A stretch of 64,000 bases of DNA from an uncultured Bacteroidales bacterium (GCA_963732575.1 CAVTAA010000006.1:64509-128508); one strand, 5' to 3'; shown: positions 10,782 to 43,010, counted from the stretch's first letter. The notes: generated by a model from the letters alone, not told the origin. Numbers and translations are program-made.

Positions 10782-13134
10782 ATGAATAAAAAATACTGTT
10801 ATTCTGCTGATTATAATCTTATTACTGTTGTCCGGATGCGACTCCGGCCATAAAACAACACATGGAAATATGTAATGTGGTACGACACTCCTGCAGGGGA
10901 ATGGACCGAAGCTCTTCCCATAGGCAACGGCCGGCTCGGGGGAATGCTTTTCGGGAACCCTGCTGCTGAAAGATTACAGGTTAACGAAGAGTCGCTCTGG
11001 GGCGGGATGAATATTCCCAACAACAATCCCGGAGCTCTTGCACACATGCCTGAAATACGCAAGCTGATTCTTGACGGCAGGATACCCGAGGCTTTTGATC
11101 TTTCGGAAAAATACGTTGCCGGCATACCCGGAAAGATCAGGTCATACCAGACACTCGGAGAGATTTGCTTTCAATTTGCCGACACCGACCGGCAAGATCA
11201 CCGACTACCGCCGGGAGCTTAATCTCAGGACCGGCATTGCTAAAGTAAGTTTCAAGAGGGACGGAAACAAAATAGAGTACGAGGTTTACTCATCGGCACC
11301 GGATAATGTACTGGTCATTTCGATGCGATCGAAGAAGGAAGGTGGCCTTGACATGTCAATCTCACTGCAGCGGCAGCAGGATGCTGTCATCAGTGTCATG
11401 GACGGCCGCATAGACATGGAGGGACAGGTGATTGACAGTGACGACCCGGCCCTGGGGCCGGGCGGAGCTCACATGAAGTTCTTTGCCTCCCTCCTTCCAA
11501 CAGCATACGACGGTAAGCTGACACATGACAATAAATCACTGAAATATACCGGAGGAACCGAGCTGGTAATGTTCTTCAATGCAGCTACTGATTATAATGT
11601 TGACAGTCTGAATTTCGACCGCACGATCGATCCGCGAAGGAAGTGCACCGATGCCATCAGCACAGCTTCCTGGAAATCATTTGAGCGTCTGAAGAAAAGT
11701 CATATCGATGAACACTCTTCAATGTTTGACAGGGTCAGCCTGCAAATTGGAAATGACAACAAAGCTGATACCATACCCACTGACGAGCGTCTCAGGAGGT
11801 TCCAGGCAGGCGGAGATGACCCGGGACTCGATCGCACTCTATTTTCAGTACGGACGATACCTGCTGATGGGCTCGTCGCAGACATCCTGCACAGCTCCCT
11901 GCGAACCTCCAGGGTATCTGGAACAAGGATTACTTGGCTCCGTGGGGCTCTGACTACCATGTCAACATCAACCTGCAGATGAATTACTGGCCCGCGGAGG
12001 TATGCAATCTCAGCGAGACTGTCGATCCGGTGGTAACATTTCATGGAAGAGCTTACAGTTCCGGGAAGTGTCACTGCCCGTGAGATGTACGGTGCGAAGG
12101 GATGGACAATGCATCATACCACGGATGTATTCGGCAAGACGGCCGTGATAGACGGCGTTTACTGGGGCATGTTCCCGCTGGGAGGAGCATGGATGACACT
12201 GCCTCTGTGGGAACACTATGAGTTCACAAATGACACCTCCTATCCTGCGTGAGAGAGCTTACCCGGTCATGAAGGGAGCAGCCGACTTTATCAGGACTTT
12301 TCTTTTCACAGATAAAGAGGGGTATCTTGTTACAGCTCCTACTTACTCACCGGAAAACAGTTATATCGATCCGGTCTCCGGTAAAGAATTCAAGCTTACC
12401 TATGCCCCGACAATGGATAACCAGATCATACGGGAGGTTCTCACAAACTGCCAGAAAGCTGCTCAGATACTTAACACTGACACCGGATGGGCTGACAGCC
12501 TTCAGCAGACGCTGGACAAGCTCCCTCCTGTCAGGATTGCTTCCAACGGCACTATAATGGAGTGGATCAGAGGAATATGAAGAGGCTGAGCCCGGTCACA
12601 GGCACATGTCGCATCTCTTCGGGCTGCACCCGGGCACGCAGATCACACCGGATACACCTGATCTCTATGCCGCAGCACGTAAAACGCTTGAACACCGGTT
12701 AGAGAACGGCGGCGGACATACCGGCTGGAGCAGGGCATGGATCATCAATTTCTATGCCCGCCTCCATGACGGAAATGAGAGTTACAAACACCTCAGGCTG
12801 CTGCTTGAAAAATCGACCCTGCCAAATCTCTTTGACAACCACCCGCCATTCCAGATTGACGGAAACTTCGGCGGCACGGCAGGCATAGCCGAGATGCTGC
12901 TGCAGAGTCAAAACGGTGTGGTGAACATACTGCCTGCCCTGCCTGATGCCTGGCCTGCAGGGCTCTGTGACAGGATTGAAAGCCAGGGGTAATTTTGAAG
13001 TTGACATTGAATGGGAAGCAAGGAGAATGAAAGGAAGTCGTGATCAGGTCTTTCTCCGGAGCGCCTCTGACATTGGTCTGCCGAGGTAATAAGGTTTTCA
13101 TGGAGACAGTAAAGGTGTCAACGTACAGGTTTGA
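10782..13134 (+). pseudogene. Glycoside hydrolase family 95 (alpha-L-fucosidase-like) lipoprotein, about 10 frameshifts
   Basis: MWYDTPAGEWTEALPIGNGRLGGMLFG..ERLQVNEESLWGG is the GH95 N-terminus. Further GH95 stretches lie in shifting frames: LYFQYGRYLLMGSS, LPANLQGIWNKDYLAPWGSDYHVNINLQMNYWPAE and [23 protein letters not shown] lipoprotein signal peptide (..LLLLSGC) lies upstream, after the A6 run at 10788-10793. Confidence 0.85.
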
Positions 13135-27300: not shown

Positions 27301-28276
27301 ATGAAAATTGCTGTTACCGGCGCTTCAGGGCATGTGGGCGCCAACCTGTGCAGATTGCTGATTGACCAGGGTCATGAGGTTAAAGCTCTGATACACAATA
27401 GCACAAAAGGCATTGAGGATCTTGGTCTCGAATTTGTTCACGGTGAAATTAACAGTGAAGCTGATCTCAGAAAACTCTGTTCAGGCTGTGAAATAGTATT
27501 TCATCTTGCGGCTTGCATCAGCATCAGGAAAAACGATAATAATTGCCGGAAAATAAATACAGACAGTTGTGTTACCCTGCTCAAAGCAGCAAAGGCTGAA
27601 GGGGTCAGAAAAATAATTCATTTCAGTTCAATACATGCCTATGACCAGGAGCCTCTTGACATTGAACTGGATGAAACACGAAGCCTTGCCCTGGAAGGCG
27701 GGGCATCATATGAAAGATCAAAAGCTCTGGGGCAGAAGATAATGATTGAGGCATCATCACCCGGGCTTGAGGTGGTTGTGCTTAAATCCGACAGCAATAA
27801 TAGGACCTAATGATTTTCAGCCATCCCTGCTCGGTAATGCAATCATCAGGTTCTTCAAAGGCCAGAACCCGAGCCTGCTGCCCGGTGGATATAACTGGGT
27901 TGACGTCAGGGATGTATGCACTGCCGCAATAAATGCCATAGAACTGGGTGTTCCGGGAGAAAGTTATTTACTTGGAGGAAGCTGGCAAAGCCTGAAGACA
28001 ATGGCTGCAACAATTGAAAAACTTGGAGGTCATAAAGCTCCGTGGCTATGTCTGCCGATGTCAATAGCGTATCTTGGCGCGATATTTCTGAACCTCCATG
28101 CCACCGTCACAAAGAGTGTTCCGTTATATACTGCAATGTCGCTTGAAACACTGAAGCAAGGACACAGGAATATCTCAAGCAGAAAGGCGACGAAGGCTCT
28201 TGGCTTCTCACCACGTCCTTTTGAAGAGACCATGGCAGATACATTAAACTGGTTTAAGGAAAACAAATATATCTAA
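27301..28276 (+). pseudogene. NAD-dependent epimerase/dehydratase (dihydroflavonol-4-reductase-like SDR), one frameshift
   Basis: MKIAVTGASGHVGANLCRLL is a Rossmann motif. Fragments 27301..27810 and 27746..28276 join as ..GLEVVVLNPTAIIGPND.. if one A is removed from AAA at 27784-27786. Confidence 0.8.
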
Positions 28277-29791: not shown

Positions 29792-31898
29792 ATGAAAAGA
29801 ACTACTTTATTCCTTACGCTATGATTATCATATTGCTGTTGCCTGACAGGTTGCGGACCGAGAAAAGAAAAATTCCGCAGAGATGACAGATCCGTATCTC
29901 TGGCTTGAGGAGGTCGATGGAGAGAAAGCTCTCGACTGGGCAAGAGCACAGAATAAGATCTCGGATGAGGCCTTTACCAGCCTGCCTCTGTTCACTGAAC
30001 TAAGAGACAGGTTCCTGACTGTTTTTAATGACAAGGAAAGGGTGATTTATCCTGACATGGTTGGTAACTATGTATATAATCTGTGGCAGGACGAAAAGAA
30101 TGAACGCGGTCTCTGGAGGAGAATGTCAAAAGAAGATTATCTGGATGCGAAAAATGACTGGGAGGTTGTGCTTGACCTAGACAAGCTGTCAGCAGAGGAA
30201 AACAGAAAATGGGTGTTTGCGCGGAGCCAGCCTGGCTGGGTCCGGAGTATAACCTCTGCCTGCTTTACCTCTCTGACGGAGGTAAGGACGAAAGTGTCAT
30301 CAGGGAATTCGATGTATCAAAAAAAACATTTGTGACTGGCGGCTTCACTGTCAGTGAGAGCAAGGGCAGCGCCACATGGATTGATAAGGACAATATTCTT
30401 GTGGCAACAAATTACGGACCCGGCACGGTGACCACCTCGGGGTATCCAACGACTGTAAAACTGTGGAAAAGGGGCGATGATCCGGCCGGGGCAGAAACAC
30501 TGCTTGAAACAGACACCACCACGATGGGTGTTTTTGTCAACGGCATGAACGTAGACGGAAAACAATACACCTTCATAGATGTACAGTAAAGGTTTTTATG
30601 AGACAGACATTTACCTGTATACTGCTGAAGGACTACGCAAGATAGAGGTTCCGTCAGATGTGGAGTATAAAGGAATGCACGGAGACGAAATGCTCCTTTA
30701 TCTTCAGTCAGACTGGGAAACTGAAAATGAAACTTACAAATCCGGAACCTTAGTCAGCTATGATCTTACGGTTTCCTTTCCGGCAAAACAACAGTAAGAA
30801 CTATCTATCAGCCTGAGGAACGGGCAAGCTTTGCTCAGTTTTGTCAGCAAAAGATTTCGTAGTTGTTTCCACGATGGAGAATGTGCAGAGCAAATTGAAG
30901 ATTTTTCGCGACTGAAGGTGATAAAATGGATGGAGAGGCTGTACCTGTACCTGAATTCGGAACAGTCATCGCTTGTCAGTTCAGATGACCAGTCGGATGA
31001 CTATTTCTTTGCTTTCAGTAATCCCGTGACACCATCAACACTTTACTATGGTGACGGTGAAAAAATCACAGCTATTAGGAAGCAGAAAGACTATTTTGAT
31101 GCTTCCGGTCTGATTGTAGAACAGTCTGAGGCAGTTTCGAAAGACGGCACTATAATTCCATACTTCATTGTTCACCCGAAAGATATGGTTTATGACGGTA
31201 AAAATCCGACACTGATATATGGTTATGGAGGATTCAATATTTCCGAACAACCATGGTACAGTTCAGTCACCGGCATAGGATGGCTGGAGCAGGGCGGAGT
31301 TTATGTCATTGCCAATATCCGTGGCGGAGGTGAATTCGGTCCTGCATGGCACCATGCGGCACTGAAAGAAAAACGTCAGAATGCGTACGACGATTTCTTT
31401 GCCGTTGCTGAAGATGTTATTAGCCAAAAGATAACCTCGCCTGAGTACATGGGTGCTTTCGGGTGGAGCAACGGAGGGCTGCTGGCAGGTGTAGCGCTGA
31501 CTCAGAGACCTGATCTGTATAATGCAGTGGTAATTGGTGCGCCTCTTCTTGATATGAAACGCTACTCCCACATGCTTGCAGGTGCCAGCTGGATGGATGA
31601 GTACGGAGATCCTGACAAGCCTGAGGATTGGGCTTTTATAAGCAAGTATTCACCATACCAGAATCTGAGCAAGAAGACAAAATACCCCGAGCCGCTCTTC
31701 ATAACCTCAACCAGGGATGACAGGGTACACCCCGGTCATGCCCGGAAGATGGCGGCAAAAATGATTGATATGGGTCACCCGGTTTACTACCATGAGACGA
31801 TAGAGGGTGGTCACGGCGCTGCTTCCACCAATGCACAGGAGGCTGACATGTGGGCTCTGATCTATTCCTACCTCAATAAAAAGCTGATTATCAAGTAA
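29792..31898 (+). pseudogene. Prolyl oligopeptidase (S9A) family lipoprotein, at least 5 frameshifts
   Basis: MTDPYLWLEEVDGEKALDWARAQN is the S9A N-terminal hallmark. The C-terminal piece 30831..31898 has the catalytic GWSNGGLL, ..TSTRDDRVHP.. and ..GGHGA. A lipobox LTGC lies upstream. Confidence 0.85.
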
Positions 31899-31915
31899 AA
31901 GTCTTAAAATAAGAA

Positions 31916-31941
31916 GACTGCCGGCTTGGGGCCCGGCAGTC
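31916..31941 (+). terminator. Stem-loop after the peptidase gene (possible terminator, no U-tract)
   Basis: A 9-bp stem (GACTGCCGG at 31916-31924 pairing with CCGGCAGTC at 31933-31941) encloses an 8-nt loop, 18 nt after the stop codon. Confidence 0.4.
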
Positions 31942-32210
31942 TCCGGCAATAAAACGGACTTATATAAAGAAAGAAAGAAGTTTTTATGTCCTGAACCTTG
32001 TCCTTAACTTACAAGGCAAAAATATTTTGCAATTATGAAGATTTAATGAAGTTGGAGAAAAATTGTCTTATGGTTTGCCTGCCCGGATGGCTGAAAACTA
32101 AAATACTTTGTACTGAAATATATGATATGTCCCAAGGTGAAATAAAATTTTATACATTTATGGAGCCTGATTGATTGATTTATCATATAACTAACCTAAA
32201 TACCTGAATT

Positions 32211-32558
32211 ATGACCAGTTCAAAACTAACAGCAGGTTTTCTCCTTGGATTGTTGCTGCTCATTTCTTCGTGCGGCGGCGGAAAAACCAGGGAGGCCAAG
32301 GGTGAACCCGCAGCAGCGACAACCACAATTGAATTGACAATCGGAGGAATGACCTGCACGGGATGCGAGAATACAATTCAAACAAATCTGGGTAAAGTAC
32401 CCGGTATAATTTCAGTTACCGCATCACACCTCAAGGGAAATGCCATCATCGAGTATGAGCCCGGCAAAGTTGACACTCTCAAAATAAAAGAGGTGGTTGA
32501 TGGAGTGGGTTATACTGCCCTCAAAGTCTCTCCTGCAGAGACGACGGTTGCCGACTGA
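32211..32558 (+). CDS. Heavy-metal-associated (HMA) domain lipoprotein, copper chaperone-like
   Basis: The protein has a lipoprotein signal (..LLLISSCGGG) and a GMTCTGCENTIQ metal-binding motif in a ferredoxin-like HMA domain. Confidence 0.85.
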   Translation: MTSSKLTAGFLLGLLLLISSCGGGKTREAKGEPAAATTTIELTIGGMTCTGCENTIQTNLGKVPGIISVTASHLKGNAIIEYEPGKVDTLKIKEVVDGVGYTALKVSPAETTVAD

Positions 32559-32601
32559 TTTTATGCTGGTTACTTTTTATTTTCACCTCAATTAATCCGT
32601 T

Positions 32602-33579
32602 ATGTCAAAGGAGAAGCAGGAGAAGAATGATGGAAAGCCTGATCTGGATAAGGTAATCGAGACGTCGAGACGTGATTTTATCCGTAAGGTCACCATCGCC
32701 GGGGCAGTGACAGTCACAGGCGCTGCAGCCGTATATTCCGGTCACCGTTTTGAAAAGGGAAAACACCGGGAAGGAATGGTCAGGGTGCTTACTGAGGACA
32801 ACCGGCTTGTTGAGATACCCATTGAGCAGATGAAGGATTTCAAGCCTGATCTGAAGATGCTGCAGAGCCGGGGCCGTGAGGGCATCAGCGGCCGGAGGTG
32901 GGTCATGGTGATCGATCTTTCAAGATGCAGGAATGCGAGGAAATGTGTGGAGGCATGCCAGAGTGCACATCATCTTCGCCCTTATGAGTATCACATCAAC
33001 ACGCTGGTAATGCAGGAGTCTGTCAATACACCAGCCTATTTCATGCCAAAACAATGCCAGCACTGTGACAACCCGCCATGTGTTTCTGTCTGTCCCGTTG
33101 ATGCCACCTTCAAGAGGCAGGATGGCATCGTGCTTATCGACAACGAGCGTTGCATAGGGTGCCGGTTTTGCATTGCAGCCTGCCCCTACTCGGCCAGGAT
33201 CTTTCACTGGCAGGAGCCTTCGATGGCGGAGGCTGACAAGGAACTGGAGTATGATGTGGAGCTGAACGTGCCCCATAAGAAGGGAACGGTGACCAAGTGC
33301 CTCTTCAGTGCCGACAGGCTCCGTGAAGGAATACTCCCCTACTGCGTCACGGCCTGCCCCAACGGGGTGTATTATTTCGGTGATGAGAACGAAAATGCAG
33401 TCACCAACGGCACCACAAAAGAAACGGTACGTCTGAGCGAGCTGCTGGAACAGAACGGGGCATACAGGCTCATGCCCGAGCTTGGAACAAAACCGAGGAT
33501 ATACTACCTGCCGCCCAAGAACAGGCTGTTCGACTTCGAAAGGGGTGAAAGCAAAGAGTTTAAGGAAGAAACGATTTAA
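32602..33579 (+). CDS. Tat-exported 4Fe-4S ferredoxin-type subunit, NrfC/PsrB/ActB-C-terminal-like
   Basis: The twin-arginine signal is SRRDFIRKVTIAGAV. Cysteine clusters are CQHCDNPPCVSVCP, CIGCRFCIAACP and C..YCVTACP. The protein is 325 aa. Confidence 0.85.
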   Translation: MSKEKQEKNDGKPDLDKVIETSRRDFIRKVTIAGAVTVTGAAAVYSGHRFEKGKHREGMVRVLTEDNRLVEIPIEQMKDFKPDLKMLQSRGREGISGRRWVMVIDLSRCRNARKCVEACQSAHHLRPYEYHINTLVMQESVNTPAYFMPKQCQHCDNPPCVSVCPVDATFKRQDGIVLIDNERCIGCRFCIAACPYSARIFHWQEPSMAEADKELEYDVELNVPHKKGTVTKCLFSADRLREGILPYCVTACPNGVYYFGDENENAVTNGTTKETVRLSELLEQNGAYRLMPELGTKPRIYYLPPKNRLFDFERGESKEFKEETI

Positions 33580-33591
33580 ACAAGCAACATT

Positions 33592-34941
33592 ATGGCTGAA
33601 ACCCGTTTCAACACTCCTGAAGAACAGAGGAAAATTGATTCCATAGCTGCGGATATTTTACGAAATGTGAGAATAAACAAGGGTTTTATACTCTGGATGG
33701 GATTTCTTATCACCCTTCTGGCCCTGTGTCTCCTGGCTTATATTATTCAGCTGAAAAAAGGGCTTGGGGTTACCGGCCTGCGTGACTTCACCAGCTGGGG
33801 CATGTATATCGCCAACTTCGTTTTCTTTGTGGCGACCAGCCTTGTGGGCATGCTGATCAGCTCAGTACTTGGGATGATTGGCTACCAATGGGTCAAACCT
33901 ATTTCACGAATTGCCGAAATTATTGCCATTGCTTTTGCCGCCGTAGCCGGACTGGTGATCGTATCTGACATGGGGCGCCCTGACAGACTGCCCTACGTGT
34001 TTATGTACGGACGCGTTCAGTCACCAATTCTATGGGACGTGACCGTGGTGACCACTTATTTTGTGCTCAGCCTGCTGCTCTGGTTCTTTCCGCTCATACC
34101 TGACCTTGCCATTTCAAAGAGCAGGATGAACGGAAGACCGGCATTCCTTGTGAAGGCGTATGAGATTCTTTCATTCAGATGGGAGCACCATGAGGCACAG
34201 TACAAAATAATGAAACAGGCTGTACGGATACTTCTGATACTCATCATCCCGACGGCATTTGCCATTCACACGGTGACATCATGGCTCTTTGCCGTAACAC
34301 CCCGGACAGGATGGGACAGTACTATCTTCGGGCCCTACTTCATTTCAGGCGCCTTCGTTTCAGGTACGGCAGCGGTGATTATTGCAATGTATTTCTTCAG
34401 GGTAAACTACAGGCTCGAAAAGTACCTCACCGGAGATCATTTCGAAAAGATAGGCAGGGTACTGGTTCTTGTGTCAATAGTTTATCTGTACTTTAACCTG
34501 AATGAGTTCCTCGTTCCCGGTTACAAGCTGAAGACCGGCGATGCAATCCACCTCCGTGAGCTGTTTACCGGTCACTACGCTCCTCTTTTCTGGGGCATTC
34601 AGATCCTGGGATTAATAGTGCCGATTATCCTGCTGCTGTTCAGGAAAATACGCAGGCCGTTGCCCATGCTGGTCATTTCTTTGGTTGTGCTGTGTGCTTC
34701 ATGGCTCAAGAGGCTTATCATCGTCATCCCTCCGCAGGCCCATCCGAACCTGCCGATACAGAATGTTCCACCCGAATGGATCGTTTATAAACCCACACTT
34801 ATTGAGTCCGCCGTAACCCTTGCTTCAATACTGCTTGTACTGATCATCGTGACCATTCTTTCAAAGCTGTTCCCTGTGATACCTATCTGGGAGATGGCTG
34901 AAGACGATAGTAAAAAATCCATTAACATCGAAAACCGGTAA
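33592..34941 (+). CDS. NrfD/PsrC/ActC-like quinone-interacting membrane subunit
   Basis: The 449-aa protein has about 10 TM helices and lies directly after the FeS subunit, which is the standard NrfCD-type pairing. Confidence 0.8.
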   Translation: MAETRFNTPEEQRKIDSIAADILRNVRINKGFILWMGFLITLLALCLLAYIIQLKKGLGVTGLRDFTSWGMYIANFVFFVATSLVGMLISSVLGMIGYQWVKPISRIAEIIAIAFAAVAGLVIVSDMGRPDRLPYVFMYGRVQSPILWDVTVVTTYFVLSLLLWFFPLIPDLAISKSRMNGRPAFLVKAYEILSFRWEHHEAQYKIMKQAVRILLILIIPTAFAIHTVTSWLFAVTPRTGWDSTIFGPYFISGAFVSGTAAVIIAMYFFRVNYRLEKYLTGDHFEKIGRVLVLVSIVYLYFNLNEFLVPGYKLKTGDAIHLRELFTGHYAPLFWGIQILGLIVPIILLLFRKIRRPLPMLVISLVVLCASWLKRLIIVIPPQAHPNLPIQNVPPEWIVYKPTLIESAVTLASILLVLIIVTILSKLFPVIPIWEMAEDDSKKSINIENR

Positions 34942-34953
34942 CAACGCTTGAAT

Positions 34954-35910
34954 ATGAAGAGTGTCATTACGCTTATCTGGTGCCTGATCCTGTTTCCGTC
35001 CTTTACCTGGGGCCAGGAGTGGATAGTACCGGAAGAGAGAAGAGGAAGGCTGAGTACTTTCCCATTTACTGATGAGACACGAAAAGAGGGAGAGAAACTC
35101 TATACCGTAAATTGTTTGTCATGCCACGGTAACCCGGGAAAAGGAAACTACCTGGCCCTGGTGCCTGTGCCCGGTGACCCTGCCACAGAAAAGATCCAGA
35201 GAAACAGCGACGGAGAGATCTTTCATAAAGTTTCTGTGGGAAAAGGACAGATGCCTTCGTTCCGTAGTGTTCTCACCACGGATGACATCTGGAAGACAGT
35301 CTCATATATCAGGAGCTTCAACAAAAGCTATGTTCAGCAGGTCATGCAGGTCATCACCTCATCAGCCTATCCCGGGGCAGTGATAAGCATGAAAATAGCA
35401 TATAACGCCGCGGAACATGCCCTGACGGTTATGGCCCGGGCGGCGGATGAAGAGAAGACTGTACCGGTTACCGGAGCCGGGGTAAAACTTTTTGCTTCAC
35501 GTTATTTCGGCAAGCTGCCCCTGGATGAGGAGAAAATAACCGACAGCAAGGGCAATGCAACCTTCACGATTCCGGCTGACATTCCAGGCGATACAGCCGG
35601 CAATGTCAGCATCAGTGCAAGGTTTACAGATGAAGAGGTATTTGGTGTCGTTTCAAAAGATACTGTCATTAAAGCTGGTGTAATAACCGTTCCTGTAAGC
35701 CTGGTGGCGGAAAGAGCCATGTGGAACAATGTAAGAAAAGCCCCTGTATGGATCATCCTGACCTATACACTGGGTGTTCTTGCTGTATGGGGATTTATCT
35801 TCCTGGTTATGATGAAACTGCGTGATATATATACTATTGGCAGTGCCCTCAGAGGTAAACTTGATGACACCACTGAACCGGAGACAAGCCACAAACAAGC
35901 AGAAATATGA
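34954..35910 (+). CDS. Membrane-anchored monoheme c-type cytochrome (ActE-like) with extra beta-rich domain
   Basis: The protein has a signal peptide, a CLSCHG heme motif with a distal GQMPSF Met ligand, a roughly 130-aa extra domain and a C-terminal TM helix (VWIILTYTLGVLAVWGFIFLVMM). I prefer ATG 34954 over the TTG at 34948. Confidence 0.8.
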   Translation: MKSVITLIWCLILFPSFTWGQEWIVPEERRGRLSTFPFTDETRKEGEKLYTVNCLSCHGNPGKGNYLALVPVPGDPATEKIQRNSDGEIFHKVSVGKGQMPSFRSVLTTDDIWKTVSYIRSFNKSYVQQVMQVITSSAYPGAVISMKIAYNAAEHALTVMARAADEEKTVPVTGAGVKLFASRYFGKLPLDEEKITDSKGNATFTIPADIPGDTAGNVSISARFTDEEVFGVVSKDTVIKAGVITVPVSLVAERAMWNNVRKAPVWIILTYTLGVLAVWGFIFLVMMKLRDIYTIGSALRGKLDDTTEPETSHKQAEI

Positions 35911-36293
35911 AAAACCTTGCACCAATCGGCAGGATCCTCTTCGCCCTGCCATTTGCGATATTCGGGATCAACCATTTCCTGATGATGGATTACTATGTTG
36001 GAATGCTGACCTCATTCATACCACTGGGGGGATATACAATAATTCTGACGGGGCTGATACTCATAGCCGTGAGTATAAGCATCATCACCAAGAAGTTCGT
36101 CAGGCTATCAACACTGGTGCTTGCAGGGCTCTTGCTGATTTTTATTCTTACAATCCATATACCCCATCTGATTAACGGGGCCGACAGACCCCTGATCCTT
36201 ATCGCCTTGCTGAAGGATATCTCGCTGATGGGTGGCTCACTGATGATAGCAGGCATGTCTTCAGACGATAAAAAACAAATAACAGATAAATGA
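35907..36293 (+). CDS. DoxX family membrane protein
   Basis: The 128-aa protein has 4 TM helices (GRILFALPFAIFGINHF..) with a DoxX-like pattern. It overlaps the cytochrome c gene by 4 nt. Confidence 0.7.
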   Translation: MKNLAPIGRILFALPFAIFGINHFLMMDYYVGMLTSFIPLGGYTIILTGLILIAVSISIITKKFVRLSTLVLAGLLLIFILTIHIPHLINGADRPLILIALLKDISLMGGSLMIAGMSSDDKKQITDK

Positions 36294-36321
36294 AAATGAA
36301 ACACTGGTTGCAGCAATACTG

Positions 36322-37071
36322 TTGCTTTCCATCCTTCCGCTGATCACAGCACAGGATATAAAGAAAGCTGATTATCAGTTCAAGGATGTGGAGATTGGTG
36401 TAATCGAACACCTCGGTGACACAATCCCGCTTGACCTCTGGTTTTTCAATGAGGAAAACGAGAAGGTTACTCTGAGAGAGCTGATTGACAAACCTGTAAT
36501 ATTGTGTCTGGTCTATTTTGACTGTCCCAATATATGCAGCCCACTGATGGACGGCGTTGCCGATGTGGTAAGCAAAATGGACATGAGCATAGGAGATGAT
36601 TACAAGATCATCACCATCAGCTTCAACACAAGCGACACTCCCGAAAAAGCCAGGGAGAAGAAAGTGAACTTCGTGCAGCGTATCAGCAAGGAGCACCAGA
36701 AAGACTGGATCTACCTTACCGGAACACAGGAGAATATCACAGCAATAACTGAAGCTGTCGGGTATAAATACAAACCGCAGGGACTTGACTTCGCTCATCC
36801 TGCCGTGATAGCCATACTCAGTCCTGCCGGAAAGATAACACGGTACCTTTACGGCATCACCTATCTTCCCTTTGATGTCAAGATGGCAATCATCGAAGCT
36901 CAGAAAGGTATAGCCCGCCCAACTTCCAACCGGATCCTGGAATATTGTTTCGGATATAATCCTGCCAGCAAGACCTATACGCTGCAGGTCACGAGGATAG
37001 TTGGGGTAATAACAATATTCCTGGCACTGGTGATACTTGTTTTTCTGCTTATCAGGCGAAGGAAAAAATAA
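36322..37071 (+). CDS. SCO1/SenC copper chaperone (start probably disrupted)
   Basis: The thioredoxin fold has the copper-binding motif YFDCPNICSPLMDG and a C-terminal TM segment. The expected signal peptide (MKMK-TLVAAILLLSILPLITAQ) starts at ATG 36290 in another frame. One missing A at AAA 36299-36301 would join them. Confidence 0.85.
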   Translation: MLSILPLITAQDIKKADYQFKDVEIGVIEHLGDTIPLDLWFFNEENEKVTLRELIDKPVILCLVYFDCPNICSPLMDGVADVVSKMDMSIGDDYKIITISFNTSDTPEKAREKKVNFVQRISKEHQKDWIYLTGTQENITAITEAVGYKYKPQGLDFAHPAVIAILSPAGKITRYLYGITYLPFDVKMAIIEAQKGIARPTSNRILEYCFGYNPASKTYTLQVTRIVGVITIFLALVILVFLLIRRRKK

Positions 37072-37083
37072 AAACAGGCATAT

Positions 37084-38701
37084 ATGGCAAATGAAACTCA
37101 GGTAAGCTACCTGGAATACCAGGGCAGGCACAAAGGGATATGGTCATGGCTGCTAAGCACCGATCACAAGCGTATCGGGCTGATGTACCTCTATGCCGTC
37201 ATTGTCTTCTTTTTTGTGGCTGCCGTCCTCGGTGTGCTCATGCGCATAGAACTGATAGCTCCGGGCCGCACTATCATGGAACCGCAGACTTACAACGGTC
37301 TCTTCACGATCCACGGCATCATAATGATATTTGTGATCGTCATCCCGGGCCTGGCGACCGTTTTCGGCAACTTTTTCCTGCCCATCCTTATCGGGGCCAA
37401 AGACGTCGCTTTTCCAAAGCTGAATTTGTTCTCGTGGTATCTGTATATCATCGGGGCCCTATTGGGAGTGCTTTCCCAGTTCCTGGGTAACGGGCCGCCT
37501 GATACAGGCTGGACCTTCTATGTGCCTTACAGCGTGGAGTCGTCAACCAGCGTCATCTGGGCCCTTACTGCCGCTTTCATTCTTGGCTTCTCCTCCATTC
37601 TTACAGGGCTTAACTTCATTGTGACAATTCACCGGATGCGCGCACCGGGAATGAAATGGATGCGTATGCCTCTCTTTCCCTGGGCGCTCTATGCCACTGC
37701 ATGGATACAGGTTCTCGCCACCCCCATTGTAGGGATAACCCTCCTTATGGTTATTGCAGAGAGAGTGCTGAATATCGGTTTCTTCGACCCTGCCCTCGGA
37801 GGTGACCCGGTGCTGTTCCAGCATCTTTTCTGGATATATTCTCACCCTGCAGTTTACATAATGATATTGCCCGCCATGGGTGTCGTCACTGAGATATTCC
37901 CAACCTTCAGCCAGAAACCGGTGTTCGGCTACGGCGCCATAGTACTCTCAAGCCTTGCCATTGCCTTTGTCGGATACTTTGTGTGGGGACATCATATGTT
38001 CACATCAGGCATGAGCTACAACGCCAGGTGGTTCTTCTCATTCCTCACATTCATTGTGGCAGTACCCAGCGCAATAAAAGTATTTAATTGGATATCAACG
38101 ATGTACGGAGGGTCAATAGACCTTAAACCTCCCCTGCTGTACGCCATATCATTTATTTTTCTCTTTATGATAGGCGGTTTCACAGGACTGGTTCTGGGAT
38201 CACTTGCAACCAATGTGCAGGCACACGACACTGCATTTGTGGTGGCCCACTTTCACTACATCATCTTCGGGGGCATGGGCTTTGCCTTCTTTGCTGCAAT
38301 ACACTACTGGTTCCCTAAAATGTACGGGAGGATGTACAACAATAAGGTGGCAAACATTGCCTGGGGCTTCAACTTCGTTGGGTTTAACCTTCTCTACTTC
38401 CCTCAGTTTATCATCGGGTTGCAGGGAATGCCAAGACGCTCATATGACTACCTTCCACAGTTCCAGACCGGACACTTCCTTTCAACGATCGGAGCTTTCG
38501 TGCTTTTTGCCGGGCTTATTCTCATGGTCGTATAACCTTCTGGCAGCCAGGCGGCGGGGAGCCATCGCTCCTGCCAATCCATGGCATGGGGTCACGCTGG
38601 AATGGAAGATACCTTCACCCCCTCCCCATGAAAACTTTGAAGAGATACCTGAGATAACATCAAGGCCTTATCTTTTCGGTAAGAAGGAAGAAACCAAATA
38701 G
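37084..38701 (+). pseudogene. ctaD: Cytochrome c oxidase subunit I, one +1 frameshift near the 3' end
   Basis: The first 483 aa are intact (..WFFGHP-type region [32 protein letters not shown]). The last roughly 50 aa ([25 protein letters not shown]..) continue in the next frame after about 38530. Confidence 0.9.
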
Positions 38702-38712
38702 AAGGACTATCT

Positions 38713-39327
38713 ATGGCAGTTCATCATACCCATACGGAGCATACCGACAGTGAGACAGGCAAACTGGGAATGTGGATCTTCCTGTTCACAGAGCTTTTCC
38801 TTTTCGGGGGACTGTTCCTTGTATACGCCATTTTCAGGGCCAGATACTCTGCTGAATTTCACATTGCAGCCGGCGAGCTGAATGCTTACATCGGAACCAT
38901 GAATACTGTATTCCTGCTTGTAAGCAGTATGACAGCAGCCATGGCGCTGACTGCAATGCAAAAAGGTGACAGGCGGCTGACCCTGTTGCTGCTGACGGTT
39001 ACTATTATCCTGGCATCACTGTTTATGCTGAACAAGTACTTCGAGTGGTCGCATAAGTTTGAGTACGGCATCTATCCCGGCTCACCGGTACTGAAGAATA
39101 TGTCACACGGTGAACTCCTGTTCTTCGGCCTCTACTACATGATGACCGGCCTCCATGCCCTGCACGTACTGATTGGAATGGTGCTGCTCTCAATAAATGT
39201 GGTCAGGGTACGGGCAGGCACGGTCAACAGCACACGATTCCTGATGCTTGAGAACAGCGCCCTTTACTGGCACCTGGTTGACCTGATATGGATTTTCCTG
39301 TTTCCTCTCCTTTACCTTATAACCTGA
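38713..39327 (+). CDS. Heme-copper oxidase subunit III
   Basis: The 204-aa protein has [32 protein letters not shown] and [17 protein letters not shown], which are typical subunit III motifs. Confidence 0.9.
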
Positions 39328-39334
39328 GCAAGCC

Positions 39335-39619
39335 ATGAAACACGACGAAACACATATATCATCATATTCATCCCTGGCAATTGTACTGACTATTTTGCTG
39401 GTACTGACCACTATTTCAGTCCTGGCCACAGGTTTTCACCTCGGACCTTTTACCGTTGTCCTGGCGCTTTTAATTGCATGTACAAAGGTTTTTATTGTGA
39501 TTACACAGTTTATGCATCTCAGGTTTGAGAACCTGTTTTTAAAGCTGGCAGTAACAGGAGTGTTCGTGCTATTTGCGCTGGTTGTTATCATTACATTCGT
39601 TGATTATTATTTCAGATAA
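39335..39619 (+). CDS. Bacterial cytochrome c oxidase subunit IV family protein
   Basis: The 94-aa protein has 3 TM helices and the ..TKVFIVITQFMHL motif typical of the small prokaryotic subunit IV (CoxD/CtaF-like). Confidence 0.75.
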   Translation: MKHDETHISSYSSLAIVLTILLVLTTISVLATGFHLGPFTVVLALLIACTKVFIVITQFMHLRFENLFLKLAVTGVFVLFALVVIITFVDYYFR

Positions 39620-39630
39620 AAAGGATAATT

Positions 39631-40561
39631 ATGTTTACAGGAGCATCAAATCTGGCAGAGGGTGTAGACAAGGCATTCCTGTTCATCTTTATAATTTCCT
39701 TCATTTTCATCATAGGGATAACGGCCTTCATTATCTACACCGTGATTCATTTTAACCGGAAAAAAGGGAAAGAAGCCAGGCAATTCACGGGCAGCATGAA
39801 GCTGGAGATCTTATGGACGGTGGTTCCCCTTGTGCTGGTGATGTTAATGTTCTGGGTTGGGTGGAAAGCCTTTGCACCGATGCGTAAGGTGCCGGCTGAT
39901 GCAATGGTCATCAAGGCCATTGGTCGCATGTGGGAGTGGGAATTCATTTACGGCGACAGCCTGAAGTCGAGGGAACTCGTACTGCCGATCAATAAGCCTG
40001 TGAAGCTCGAACTGATCTCGGAAGACGTCAATCACAGCCTGTTTATTCCGGCATTCAGGGTCAAGGAGGATGTGGTTCCCGGATATGACAACTACCTGTG
40101 GTTCACCCCCAATTATATCGGTGATTATGAGATCCTCTGCACAGAGTATTGCGGGTTGTTGCATTCGGCCATGACATCGAAGACACGTATTGTTGAACAG
40201 GAGGAATTCGACAGGTGGTATGAAGAGCTTGCAGCAGCAGCATTTATTCCTGAGCCTGAAGGACTGAAACTGCTCAGAAATACAGGATGCCTGGCATGTC
40301 ACTCGCTTGACGCCTCAAAGCTGGTCGGACCGTCATTCGCGGGTTTGTACGGTTCACAACGTACTGTTATTTCAGGAAACACAGAAACGACAGTAACAGC
40401 GGATGATGCATATATAACCAGTTCGATATACAATCCCAATGATGTCATTGTGGCCGGATATGCAAAGAACCTTATGCAATCATACAGCGAATTGCTTGTC
40501 AGAGGCTGACATAACTGTCATCACCGGGTATCTGAAGACACTCAGCCAGGATGCCAGATAA
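39631..40561 (+). pseudogene. coxB: Cytochrome c oxidase subunit II with fused C-terminal cytochrome c domain (caa3-type), frameshift in the last ~20 codons
   Basis: The CuA site is VNHSLFIP..LCTEYCGLLHSAM and the heme c motif is CLACHS. The true tail ..LSEADITVITGYLKTLSQDAR lies in another frame, ends at 40561 and overlaps the next start. Confidence 0.9.
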
Positions 40562-41423
40562 AAAATCATTTGCAGCGATGGTCGCAGAGCTCATAAAATG
40601 GAAGCTCTCACTGGCAGTCGTTTTCTCAGCAGCTACCGGCTACCTGCTTTCCTCCGGAGGAGCTGACGGTGGCCTGTTGGTGGTGGCAGCAGGCGTCTTT
40701 CTCCTGTCATCCGGCGCTTCAGCGCTTAACCAGTACACAGAGAGGCGCATTGATGCCATTATGGACAGGACTGCAGGCAGGCCTCTGCCTTCGGGACAGA
40801 TGACACCCTTCACTGCTGTTGCTGTCGCCATTGTGCTGCTTGTATCCGGCAGCCTCGTGCTCGGCTTCGTAGGCCTTATGCCATTATTCCTTGGCCTGTT
40901 AAATGTGCTACTGTATAATGTCATCTACACAGGCCTAAAGAAACGGACTACCCTGGCCATTGTCCCCGGGGCGCTGGTTGGAGCCATCCCTCCTCTTATC
41001 GGGTATACAGCGGCGGGAGGTGTAATGACCGATACAGTAATCCTGCTTTTCTCTTTATTTATGTTCCTCTGGCAGATGCCTCATTTCTGGCTGCTTCTGG
41101 TCAGGTACGGCAGTGAATACGAAAAAGCGGGCATAAAAACCCTGTACAGCACAATGGATGCTGAAAAGATAAAACGCCTGGTATTGGTTTGGATCATTGC
41201 ATCATCACTGGCGCTCTGGATCCTTGGCGGCATTTTCATGCCCCTGCCGGCTTATGCCATCGTATCGCTGCTGGGCTTCAATATTGCATTTATTCTTTTA
41301 TTCCGGAAGATCCTGAACCTCCCCGAAACCGGGCAAAGGTCGAAATATGCCTTTATCCTGATAAATTCCTTTTCGATCCTGGTGATGATTATTCTCATCA
41401 CCGTTTCATTATTCGGTCTCTAA
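40551..41423 (+). CDS. cyoE: Protoheme IX farnesyltransferase (heme O synthase)
   Basis: This 290-aa UbiA-family protein has ALNQYTERRIDAIMDRTAGRPLPSG and ..MPHFWLL.. motifs. Confidence 0.9.
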   Translation: MPDKKSFAAMVAELIKWKLSLAVVFSAATGYLLSSGGADGGLLVVAAGVFLLSSGASALNQYTERRIDAIMDRTAGRPLPSGQMTPFTAVAVAIVLLVSGSLVLGFVGLMPLFLGLLNVLLYNVIYTGLKKRTTLAIVPGALVGAIPPLIGYTAAGGVMTDTVILLFSLFMFLWQMPHFWLLLVRYGSEYEKAGIKTLYSTMDAEKIKRLVLVWIIASSLALWILGGIFMPLPAYAIVSLLGFNIAFILLFRKILNLPETGQRSKYAFILINSFSILVMIILITVSLFGL

Positions 41424-41440
41424 TTTTTAAATCGAAACAT

Positions 41441-43010
41441 ATGAAGAATATTCTCTCAACTATGCTGGCGTTGCTGATGGTCATTTCAGCTTACTCACAG
41501 CCAATCACATCTCCTGAAATAGACAGCCTGGTCAACCTGACAATGAAGGTCTTTAACGTACCCGGTATTGCAGTTGCAGTTGTGAAGGATGACAAGGTGA
41601 TCCATATGAAGGGCTACGGCGTCAGCTCGATAGCCACCGGAAAGAAGACGGATGAAAACACCCTCTTTGCCATCGCATCAAATTCCAAGGCATTCACCTC
41701 GGCTGCACTGGGCATTCTGGTCGATGAAGGGAAGCTGACATGGAGCACAAAGGTCATTGACATTATTCCCGAATTCAGGCTATATAACGCTTATGTGACA
41801 GAGGATTTCAATATCAAGGATTTGCTCACCCACAGGAGCGGCATGGGCCTCGGGGCCGGTGATCTGATGATGTGGCCCGACTTCGGCATCATTTTCAAGA
41901 CAGGATATCATTAATAACCTCAGGTATCTCAAACAGACCTCATCATTCCGGACAAAATACGATTATGATAATCTCCTTTATGTTGTCGCGGGAGTGGTTG
42001 TTGAAAGAGTGTCAGGAACCACCTGGGAAGAATTCATCGAGGAAAGGATCATGCAGCCTCTGGGCATGACAATGTCGGCCGCATCGATCAACAGGCTTAA
42101 GGACAAGACAAATATCATTGATGCTCACGTGCCTGTTGACGGAGTCCTTCAGGTTGTAGCAAAACATGAAAGTGATGTGCATAATCCTGCCGGCGGAATA
42201 TTCAGCAGCGTGGCTGACATGAGCAAATGGGCCATCATGCAGATGAACAACGGCAAATACGGCAATAACCTTGAGAAACAAATCTTTTCAGAGGACGTGC
42301 ATACCGAGATGTGGACCCCGCAGACAATCATACCCGTCAGAGGCCGTACAACCTATAACACGCATTTTTCAGGCTACGGACTGGGGTGGGGACTGATTGA
42401 TGCCAGCGGGTACCTGCAGGCATCTCATACAGGAATGCTAATGGGTATAGTGACACAGGTGACGCTCATCCCCGAACTTAAACTTGGAATAATTGTGTTT
42501 ACAAACCAGCAGGAAGGCGCTGCCTTCACAGCAATTACCAATACAATCAAGGACAGTTACTTCGGGATAAAAGGCGTCGACAGGGTCAAGGAGTATAACG
42601 AACGGGTTCAGCGGAACCGGGCTGAGGCAAAGGAAGTCACTGACTTGGTTTGGGCAAAAATTGATGAACAGATGAAGAAAGGAACAACAAACATGAATCC
42701 TGACAGGTTTGCAGGCACCTACACTGACAAATGGTTCGGTGACATCATAATCACATCAGGTAACGGGAAGCTCAGGTTCAATTCAGTTAAATCACCCAGG
42801 CTGCGCGGAGATATGCTCTATTATACGGGCAACACCTATATTGTCAAATGGGATGACAGAGCCCTTGATGCCGATGCATTTGCTGTTTTCGCCCTTGATA
42901 AAGACGGTAAACCATCCTCGATAACGATGGAAGCCATCTCCCCGCTGACCGATTTCAGCTTTGACTTTCAGGATCTGCATTTCACTAAAAAAGAAACAAA
43001 AAATCCGTGA
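41441..43010 (+). pseudogene. Beta-lactamase-family serine hydrolase (class C/PBP-like), one +1 frameshift
   Basis: The protein has a signal peptide and the active site FAIASNSKAF (SxxK). Fragments 41441..41914 and (frame 0)..43010 join as ..MMWPDSASFSRQDIINNLRYL.. if one T is removed at TT 41882-41883. Confidence 0.8.

Follow-up and report, generated by a model that had tools for sequence, protein, structure and literature searches.

A stretch of 64 000 nucleotides (nt) from an uncultured Bacteroidales bacterium (GCA_963732575.1 CAVTAA010000006.1:64509-128508), analyzed over its whole length and hereafter referred to as the window, contains a respiratory operon at positions 32211-41423 of the + strand. 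Within this operon, genes encoding an iron–sulfur (FeS) protein, an NrfD-like membrane protein and a membrane-anchored monoheme cytochrome c, which we call the module and which form the subject of this report, lie upstream of the genes of a heme-copper oxidase. The operon comprises 11 co-directional, tightly packed open reading frames (ORFs), which are listed in their order in Table 1.

Table 1. Genes of the respiratory operon in the window, in 5΄ to 3΄ order
Feature	Position	Strand	Supporting evidence
Heavy-metal-associated (HMA) lipoprotein, 115 amino acids (aa)	32211..32558	+	PF00403 5e-12; lipobox LISSC; metal motif MTCTGC
FeS subunit, 325 aa, twin-arginine translocation (Tat) motif SRRDFIR, NrfC/PsrB/DsrO-like	32602..33579	+	Fer4_11 1e-23
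NrfD-family integral membrane subunit, 449 aa, ~10 transmembrane (TM) helices	33592..34941	+	PF03916 1.8e-32
Monoheme class I cytochrome c with immunoglobulin (Ig)-like domain and C-terminal TM helix, 318 aa	34954..35910 (ORF opens at TTG 34948)	+	PF13442 1.4e-12
DoxX-like small membrane protein, 128 aa, ~4 TM helices	35907..36293	+	PF07681 E=0.014, sub-threshold
SCO1/SenC-type copper chaperone, 249 aa, CPNIC motif	36322..37071	+	PF02630 2.9e-9
Heme-copper oxidase subunit I (CoxI, A-type), frame broken	37084..38701	+	PF00115 1.7e-150; TIGR02891 615.8 bits
Oxidase subunit III (CoxIII), 204 aa	38713..39327	+	PF00510 2.5e-19
Oxidase subunit IV (CoxIV, caa3-type), 94 aa	39335..39619	+	caa3_sub_IV TIGR02229 54.6 bits (cut-off 37.25); COX4_pro; PF03626 2.8e-10
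Oxidase subunit II (CoxII) with C-terminal cytochrome c domain (CLACH)	39631..40509	+	TIGR02866 171 bits (cut-off 147.7); COX2, COX2_TM
Heme O synthase (CyoE/CtaB), 290 aa	40551..41423	+	PF01040 1e-47; TIGR01473 188.9 bits

The first-pass annotation, which was made from the sequence of the window, had described eleven same-strand genes with gaps of at most 43 nt and several overlaps. All of these ORFs were recovered on the + strand and the limit on the gaps held, but only a single overlap was found, of 4 nt between the cytochrome and DoxX-like genes. The spacings are 43 nt (HMA–FeS), 12 nt (FeS–NrfD), 28 nt (DoxX-like–SCO1), 12 nt (SCO1–CoxI), 11 nt (CoxI–CoxIII), 7 nt (CoxIII–CoxIV), 11 nt (CoxIV–CoxII) and 41 nt (CoxII–CyoE), and the distance between the NrfD and cytochrome genes is 6 nt with the TTG start or 12 nt with the ATG at 34954, the latter being favored by the homologues of 318 aa. 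Because the identical gene order occurs in 60 related loci, the operon is not a chance arrangement.

Subunits of the module

With 113.7 bits against PF03916 (cut-off, 25.8 bits) and approximately 10 hydrophobic segments, the membrane subunit falls within the 10-helix subgroup of the NrfD/PsrC family. Its only significant matches in the PDB were the ActC chains of alternative complex III (ACIII; 1e-43 to 1e-39), for which the alignment spanned residues 38-440 of 6BTM_C with approximately 30% identity over 400 residues, and no PsrC chain was matched even at E ≤ 1. Among the NCBIfam profiles, DsrP reached 126.4 bits, under its cut-off of 350, and QrcD 57 bits against a cut-off of 570.

We mapped the residues reported for Rhodothermus marinus ActC (PMC5928083) onto the subunit by means of the phmmer alignment, and counted their invariance in 75 family sequences. 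The quinol-pocket residues W82, I86, F89 and D169 of ActC correspond to W69, I73, F76 and D149, and L166 is conservatively replaced by I146. W69, F76, I146 and D149 were invariant, and residue 73 was Ile in 71 sequences and Leu in four. At the position of ActC His139 all 75 sequences contain Asp (Asp126, within SDMGRP), and ActC Asp253 is replaced by Leu; many of the residues proposed for the proton path of ActC are invariant in the family, including the Arg equivalent to R395. From this comparison, W69, I73, F76, D126, I146 and D149 are predicted to form a menaquinol site. In DsrP, the Asp at the position of D126 lines the menadiol site that was resolved by cryo-electron microscopy (bioRxiv 10.64898/2026.08.25.746951).

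An exhaustive search of representative sequences returned 3441 relatives of this subunit at E ≤ 1e-3, 250 of them at E ≤ 1e-30. In a neighbor-joining tree without support values, all His-type ActC sequences ('HxGRP'; among them 6BTM, 6F0K and a Marinifilum ActC) formed a separate clade, and the family of the window was found inside a larger cluster of mostly 'DxGRP' sequences, its placement relative to DsrP and DsrPh being given by the Asp signature and the scores of hidden Markov models only. The phylogenetic comparison with ActC proposed in the first-pass annotation thus set the two apart. We could not label a true DsrP in the tree: 10 sampled members of the 'DxGRP' clade scored 82-149 bits against the cut-off of 350, and the PDB matches contained no DsrP chain. 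Since the subunit lies outside the ActC clade and the sampled members of its own clade score below the DsrP cut-off, it is neither ActC nor DsrP, and we assign it by sequence to a branch of the 10-helix NrfD group that has no name. One relative of 557 aa (P0149) carries a C-terminal MshE-type cyclic-di-GMP-binding domain (NF053729, 5e-26), an unexpected regulatory fusion.

The FeS protein was most similar to PsrB in the PDB (2vpw_B, 2.6e-32), and the C-terminus of ActB gave a weaker match (5e-18). Its scores with PsrB, ArrB and DsrO exceed that with ActB, and it reaches 181.8 bits with the DsrO profile of NCBIfam, below the cut-off of 200. Its description as a Tat-exported four-cluster protein of 325 aa was borne out with respect to export, length and the presence of four ferredoxin-type motifs; however, the Cys residues number exactly 14, each of them invariant across 68 family members, and two of the motifs lack their second Cys. 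According to the alignment to PsrB, this residue is replaced by Ala112 in motif I and by Ser236 in motif IV. Motif III is complete (CIGCRFCIAACP), and the ActB encoded on a Marinifilum chromosome (L060) has CIGTRYC at this place. Among distant relatives, all 16 Cys are present in L081, L085 and P0141, and the motif I Cys alone is missing in L082 and L083; the FeS proteins of the oxidase-linked Bacteroidales loci lack the second Cys of both motifs I and IV.

In the standard four-cluster, ferredoxin-type wiring, as in NarH, the two membrane-distant clusters are formed by motifs I and IV. Such wiring agrees with ActB, which misses a Cys of motif III and has a membrane-side [3Fe-4S] cluster (PMC5928083). 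From the wiring and the Cys pattern, two [4Fe-4S] clusters are predicted close to the quinol site and, at the exit of the module, two clusters with three Cys each. Judged by their ligands, the distal clusters are probably [3Fe-4S], and it would be reasonable to expect a higher potential at the cytochrome end of the wire; the [3Fe-4S] cluster of ACIII has a potential of +140 mV (PMC5928083).

The cytochrome possesses a signal peptide, one CxxCH motif (CLSCH) and a Met within GQMPSF, both invariant, and C54, C57, H58 and M100 are conserved among its homologues (alignment A1), most of which are 318 aa long. Cytochrome c552 was its best PDB match (3e-11), and ActE was weaker (~3e-6 to 5e-6). In the AlphaFold2 model, an Ig-like domain extends over residues 143-240 (block-mean pLDDT, 80-94), and is followed by a C-terminal TM helix at 265-306 (~265-290 in the domain assignment), both modeled with moderate to good confidence; a Foldseek search with this model returned only generic Ig/FN3 matches. 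In L082, L083 and L088, the Ig/TM tail has its own gene, located between those of NrfD and a small cytochrome c (E = 2e-17 to 1e-7); in P0124, P0129, P0139 and P0158, it is fused to the C-terminus of NrfD (E = 6e-10 to 9e-5). Moreover, NrfD is fused to the FeS protein in P0141. These fusions and fissions across relatives point to one complex with four elements, namely the FeS protein, NrfD, the Ig/TM anchor and the monoheme cytochrome c, and argue for the module proteins forming one physical complex. In L088 (7812-16380), two tandem units of small protein, FeS protein, NrfD and Ig/TM protein (280/287 aa) are separated by a DUF5777 gene and followed by one small cytochrome c, with no oxidase nearby.

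Conservation of the module and its gene neighborhood

We scanned a genome collection, which yielded 227 stretches encoding close relatives, and kept 80 loci with flanks of ±10 kb. At least 227 genomes carry a close relative; the closest were metagenome-assembled genomes of uncultured Bacteroidales, in which the NrfD protein was up to 96% identical. The FeS gene was located upstream of NrfD in 78 of the 80 loci, and a match to the cytochrome was found in 79 (tblastn). Downstream of the module, 60 loci contained SCO1-CoxI-III-IV-II-CyoE (caa3-type) and 12 contained cbb3 genes, seven terminated at contig ends, and one had no oxidase. The synteny survey beside cox genes suggested in the first-pass annotation accordingly found the module directly upstream of an oxidase operon, of one type or the other, in 72 of the 73 informative loci. 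The cbb3-linked loci belong to Marinifilum, Ancylomarina and Labilibaculum. For example, in Marinifilum flexuosum DSM 21950 the module is directly followed by ccoI-ccoS-ccoNO-ccoP-ccoG-ccoH (Pfam), and in a 56%-identical relative a gap of 6 nt precedes ccoS-ccoNO-ccoQ-ccoP-ccoG-ccoH. A partner oxidase that changes in type beside a constant module would be difficult to account for if the two did not work together. In one locus (L030, UBA4788, 11194-12487), the cytochrome gene is apparently truncated and runs straight into CyoE, and DoxX, SCO1 and the four oxidase genes are missing, which is either a deletion or a misassembly.

The first-pass annotation had named, as a reading that would refute its own, a polysulfide, tetrathionate or nitrite reductase system whose catalytic subunit is encoded nearby, but no such catalytic gene was found beside the module in any of the 80 loci. 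Likewise, the window and the flanks of the 80 loci contained no multiheme cytochrome, molybdenum enzyme or Dsr gene.

ACIII has been reported in 76% of Bacteroidota species (PMC8076601). As had been claimed, neither the operon nor the window as a whole encodes ActA, the molybdopterin-like domain of ActB, ActD or ActF: tblastn with the ActD and ActF of L060 as queries matched only the module's own NrfD gene in the window, where PF11821 had no match either. The window also contained no multiheme cytochrome and no Rieske motif, and CxxCH occurs only in the monoheme cytochrome and CoxII. The further claim, that the module stands in place of ACIII, is not supported across the family. In a 25-kb island of Ancylomarina euxinus (QQWG01000005.1, ~107-132 kb; L067/L091), the module, cbb3 genes with ccoGHIS and SCO1-CoxI-III-IV-II lie on one strand, and a complete actABCDFE cluster (ActA, 377 aa; ActB, 982 aa) converges from the other. 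ActC is also present in other species of Marinifilum, Ancylomarina and Labilibaculum, and on one Marinifilum chromosome (L060) act genes lie just upstream of the module. A DDE transposase gene at 5800-6885 of L060 separates the two and suggests a recent rearrangement of the respiratory island. Among the best 120 matches listed for ActC homologues (≥78% identity), none matched module-family contigs.

The oxidase genes of the window have a caa3 architecture, with CoxI, a CuA-containing CoxII fused to a cytochrome c domain, CoxIII and a caa3-type subunit IV. This classification is one of subunit architecture; a CtaA gene, which would bear on the heme type (a, o or b), was not seen in the operon. 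The heme O synthase scored under the TIGR01473 cut-off of 210.3 bits, yet this was its best match by far. Compared with L002, L004, L008 and L013, the CoxI gene contains an insertion of 1 nt near 38530 (window 38525-38535), so that an ORF at 37084-38535 is followed by the C-terminus in frame 2 up to 38701; the shift lies ~55 codons before the end. Several other genes of the window are also split into two ORFs each, namely those of an NAD-epimerase (27301-28276), a prolyl oligopeptidase (29883-31898) and a beta-lactamase/DUF3471 protein (41189-43010). The break in CoxI is therefore probably an assembly error, and the split neighbors suggest a frameshift-prone (long-read) assembly rather than real pseudogenes. 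For the same reason, we rejected a CoxI pseudogene as a biological feature.

With respect to the remaining genes, the HMA lipoprotein is a probable periplasmic copper chaperone for oxidase assembly; every CopZ/MerP-type NCBIfam match was below its cut-off, and the gene was detected in 29 of the 80 loci (tblastn). The protein previously labeled DoxX reached only 16.5 bits with PF07681 (cut-off, 23.6) and matched no NCBIfam profile, and its gene is present in 53 of the 80 loci. The position of SCO1 is conserved across the caa3-linked loci. The SCO1 homologue of the window contains no N-terminal anchor but a strongly hydrophobic C-terminal helix (226-244), the opposite of the usual Sco topology. 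HMA, SCO1 and CyoE would serve as copper- and heme-maturation factors of the oxidase and be co-transcribed with the module. A gap of 312 nt 5΄ of the HMA gene contains a strong GC-rich hairpin of 12 bp that is flanked by T tracts on either side (window 31913-31944), which is likely the terminator of the preceding peptidase gene and marks the 5΄ boundary of the operon. A sigma-70 promoter scan, which does not cover Bacteroidota promoters, remained at background (17 found, 15.3 expected).

Proposed function and alternative explanations

The only endpoints encoded by the module are a quinol site and one heme of the high-potential type, and an oxidase operon almost always follows; the simplest reading is an oxidoreductase that delivers electrons to the oxidase. 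We consider it fairly probable that the module is a compact menaquinol:cytochrome c oxidoreductase feeding the neighboring oxidase, analogous to bc1 and ACIII but of separate descent. The first-pass annotation had suggested a stripped-down quinol:cytochrome c oxidoreductase of this kind. The linkage to oxidases, caa3-type and cbb3 alike, fits that suggestion, but the module is not a reduced ACIII, given a membrane subunit outside the ActC clade, the DsrP-type Asp in place of His, the loss of other Cys residues than in ActB and the complete ACIII that accompanies it in A. euxinus.

Menaquinol would bind in the periplasm-facing pocket of the NrfD-like subunit (W69, I73, F76, D126 and D149), from which electrons would enter the membrane-proximal [4Fe-4S] cluster of the exported FeS subunit. 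They would then pass along the four-cluster wire to the two distal three-Cys clusters, probably [3Fe-4S] of higher potential, and reduce the His/Met heme of the cytochrome domain, which would be tethered by the Ig-like domain and the C-terminal helix. The next acceptor would be the CoxII cytochrome c domain (CcoO/CcoP for the cbb3-linked relatives), and the last one O2. The quinol protons would be released to the periplasm, and the polar residues that are conserved as in ActC would leave room for additional proton translocation. Both the flow of electrons in this direction and a direct docking to the oxidase are inferred.

Several observations weigh against this proposal. The more distant relatives of the module are not located beside oxidase genes. 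A complete ACIII lies alongside the module in A. euxinus, and ActC occurs in further species of the three cbb3-linked genera; there is therefore no need for the module as the sole complex III where the two coexist. Copper genes recur near the module, namely HMA and SCO1 in the window, ccoI in Marinifilum, and a Cu-ATPase with HMA in L081. In addition, the heme domain was poorly modeled by AlphaFold2, and the three-Cys sites could house [4Fe-4S] clusters if a residue other than Cys, such as Ser236, served as a ligand.

The copper genes lead to a different explanation, that the module is an oxidase-maturation device in which quinol electrons keep periplasmic copper as Cu(I), or the thiols of HMA and SCO1 reduced, for CuA/CuB insertion, rather than a bulk respiratory donor. 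This would accord with the position of the module between the HMA lipoprotein and SCO1 in the window, with ccoI, a Cu-ATPase gene, and then ccoS directly after it in Marinifilum, with L081, where a Cu-ATPase and a small HMA protein precede it and no oxidase is close by, and with the presence of a full ACIII in Marinifilaceae. However, copper genes are expected beside oxidase genes in any case, and the distant relatives L082, L083, L085 and L088 lack them. The invariant His/Met cytochrome of class I and the channel residues resembling those of ActC are features of electron-transport complexes, and the known assembly reductases CcoG, TlpA and ScoI are far simpler, so that we regard a maturation role as unlikely. 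We find it similarly improbable that the module is a quinol-oxidizing anchor for a reductase or an extracellular electron-transfer partner encoded elsewhere (a multiheme cytochrome or a reductase of sulfur or nitrogen oxyanions), with the oxidase linkage being incidental. NrfCD-type modules have been proposed to feed multiheme cytochromes (PMC3534657, PMC9386147), a gene for such a cytochrome lies ~3.5 kb downstream of the module in L082, and DsrO and DsrP are the best NCBIfam matches. Nevertheless, these matches score below the family cut-offs, the position immediately upstream of an oxidase operon is nearly universal among the informative loci and involves two oxidase types, and the window and the flanks of the 80 loci offer no candidate partner of the multiheme, molybdenum or Dsr kind.

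Two further alternatives concern the direction and the origin of the module. It might operate in reverse, passing electrons from a periplasmic cytochrome c to menaquinone, as Qrc, an NrfCD-type module, does (PMC6303296), and weak QrcC and QrcD matches were indeed found in NCBIfam. Yet QrcD fell far short of its cut-off, no periplasmic dehydrogenase, hydrogenase or c3-type cytochrome is encoded nearby, and the synteny with oxidases speaks for the opposite direction. Moreover, the potential of a class I His/Met cytochrome is normally too high for the reduction of menaquinone, and we consider the reverse reaction very unlikely. Still less credence is due to a degenerate ACIII that has lost ActA, the ActB1 domain, ActD and ActF, even though the NrfD subunit has no significant PDB match other than ActC chains, a weak similarity to ActE is seen in the cytochrome domain, and ACIII is common in Bacteroidota (PMC8076601). 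The 'DxGRP' clade stands apart from all 'HxGRP' ActC sequences, the FeS protein is closer to PsrB, ArrB and DsrO than to ActB, and the Cys residues are missing in motifs I and IV of the module but in motif III of ActB. Furthermore, an intact ACIII occupies the same gene island in A. euxinus, and homologous four-part modules are widespread in other contexts.

The genes of a compact one-heme complex of the NrfCD type stand beside those of an oxidase in at least 72 Bacteroidales species-level genomes. If the module is a menaquinol:cytochrome c oxidoreductase, it would account for the use of caa3 or cbb3 oxidases by Bacteroidales lineages that are usually considered anaerobic. [quoted passage not shown] It would also correct the widespread labels 'polysulfide reductase NrfD', 'hydrogenase' and 'molybdopterin oxidoreductase membrane subunit'. 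Since cultured carriers exist (Marinifilum, Ancylomarina and Labilibaculum), the idea is directly testable. To our knowledge, bc1/b6f and ACIII are the only established links between quinol and cytochrome c oxidase. More tentatively, and with some doubt on our part, the module could represent a third, independently evolved class of respiratory 'complex III' with three to four subunits. Such a complex would combine an FeS protein bearing two [3Fe-4S] clusters with a membrane subunit of the DsrP/ActC kind, an Ig/TM anchor and a monoheme cytochrome c; it might be the only connection from the quinone pool to heme-copper oxidases in many Bacteroidales of soil and sediment, and would use its one NrfD-type subunit for energy conservation. 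The concept of NrfCD-type modules with cytochromes and no catalytic subunit is already known (PMC3534657, PMC9386147). We found no description in the literature of the monoheme, oxidase-linked Bacteroidales module, its Cys pattern or its Ig/TM element, although an earlier mention in another review of the NrfD family is possible; the NrfD literature (PMC8076601, PMC6303296, PMC13059093) does not list this architecture.

Comparison with known systems

The module shares with ACIII (6BTM, 6F0K, 6LOD and 8K9E) a periplasmic FeS wire on a 10-helix, cofactor-less, quinol-binding subunit of the NrfD family, a monoheme class I cytochrome c, and the clustering of its genes with those of a caa3-type oxidase. 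ActC is the best match of solved structure, and several putative proton-path residues are common to both. However, the module has no pentaheme (or hexaheme) ActA, no ActB1 domain, and no ActD or ActF, and its FeS protein consists of Fer4 domains only, whereas ActB has ~1000 aa. The Cys ligands are missing at the two distal clusters in the module and in the proximal motif III in ActB, and the quinol site has Asp instead of the His found in all sequences of the ActC clade (His139 in R. marinus). The cytochrome also differs from ActE in architecture, as it bears an Ig-like domain and a C-terminal anchor. In ACIII, ActA takes up the electrons that leave the proximal cluster, and the complex can do without ActE (PMC5928083, PMC8552683); in contrast, the single heme of the module is its only exit.

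A second point of comparison is DsrJOP, together with the TMH1-DsrOhPh-tetrahaem complex of cable bacteria, which has been speculated to be a candidate ACIII (PMC13047784, bioRxiv 10.64898/2026.08.25.746951). These systems likewise combine a DsrO-like FeS protein, a DsrP-like membrane protein and a c-type cytochrome with no catalytic subunit, and contain a small single-helix accessory element. The Asp at the quinol site is as in DsrP, and the closest NCBIfam profiles of the two subunits are DsrO and DsrP. In contrast, the module remains below both cut-offs (181.8 against 200 for DsrO; 126 against 350 for DsrP), lacks dsrMK genes and is linked to oxidase operons, and its cytochrome is a monoheme His/Met protein instead of triheme (DsrJ) or tetraheme. 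The distinction from the tetraheme complex of cable bacteria is based on its description and not on sequence.

In reductases of the complex iron–sulfur molybdoenzyme type (Psr/Phs, Ttr, Nrf and Arr), a catalytic molybdenum-bis(pyranopterin guanine dinucleotide) subunit or NrfA is encoded together with the FeS and NrfD proteins, but a gene of this kind was found neither in the window nor next to the module at any of the 80 loci. With no catalytic gene present, we rejected an anchor of a polysulfide, tetrathionate or nitrite reductase. The Cbc complexes of Geobacter are also of the NrfCD type, with cytochromes and no catalytic subunit. NrfCD-type modules without a catalytic subunit in Melioribacter roseus (Mros1571-1572) and MBNT15 have been proposed as donors to periplasmic multiheme cytochromes (PMC3534657, PMC9386147). 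Like the module, they consist of an FeS protein and an NrfD-like protein acting as a proposed quinol:acceptor oxidoreductase; they are associated with multiheme cytochromes and metal reduction, whereas the module possesses one heme of the high-potential type, an Ig/TM anchor and strict synteny with oxidases.

Finally, cytochromes cy and c552 are membrane-anchored class I monoheme cytochromes that connect bc1 to aa3 or cbb3 oxidases by means of an N-terminal anchor and a flexible linker. In the module, by contrast, the anchor is found at the C-terminus, behind an Ig-like domain, and its homologues are subunits or fusion partners of NrfD.

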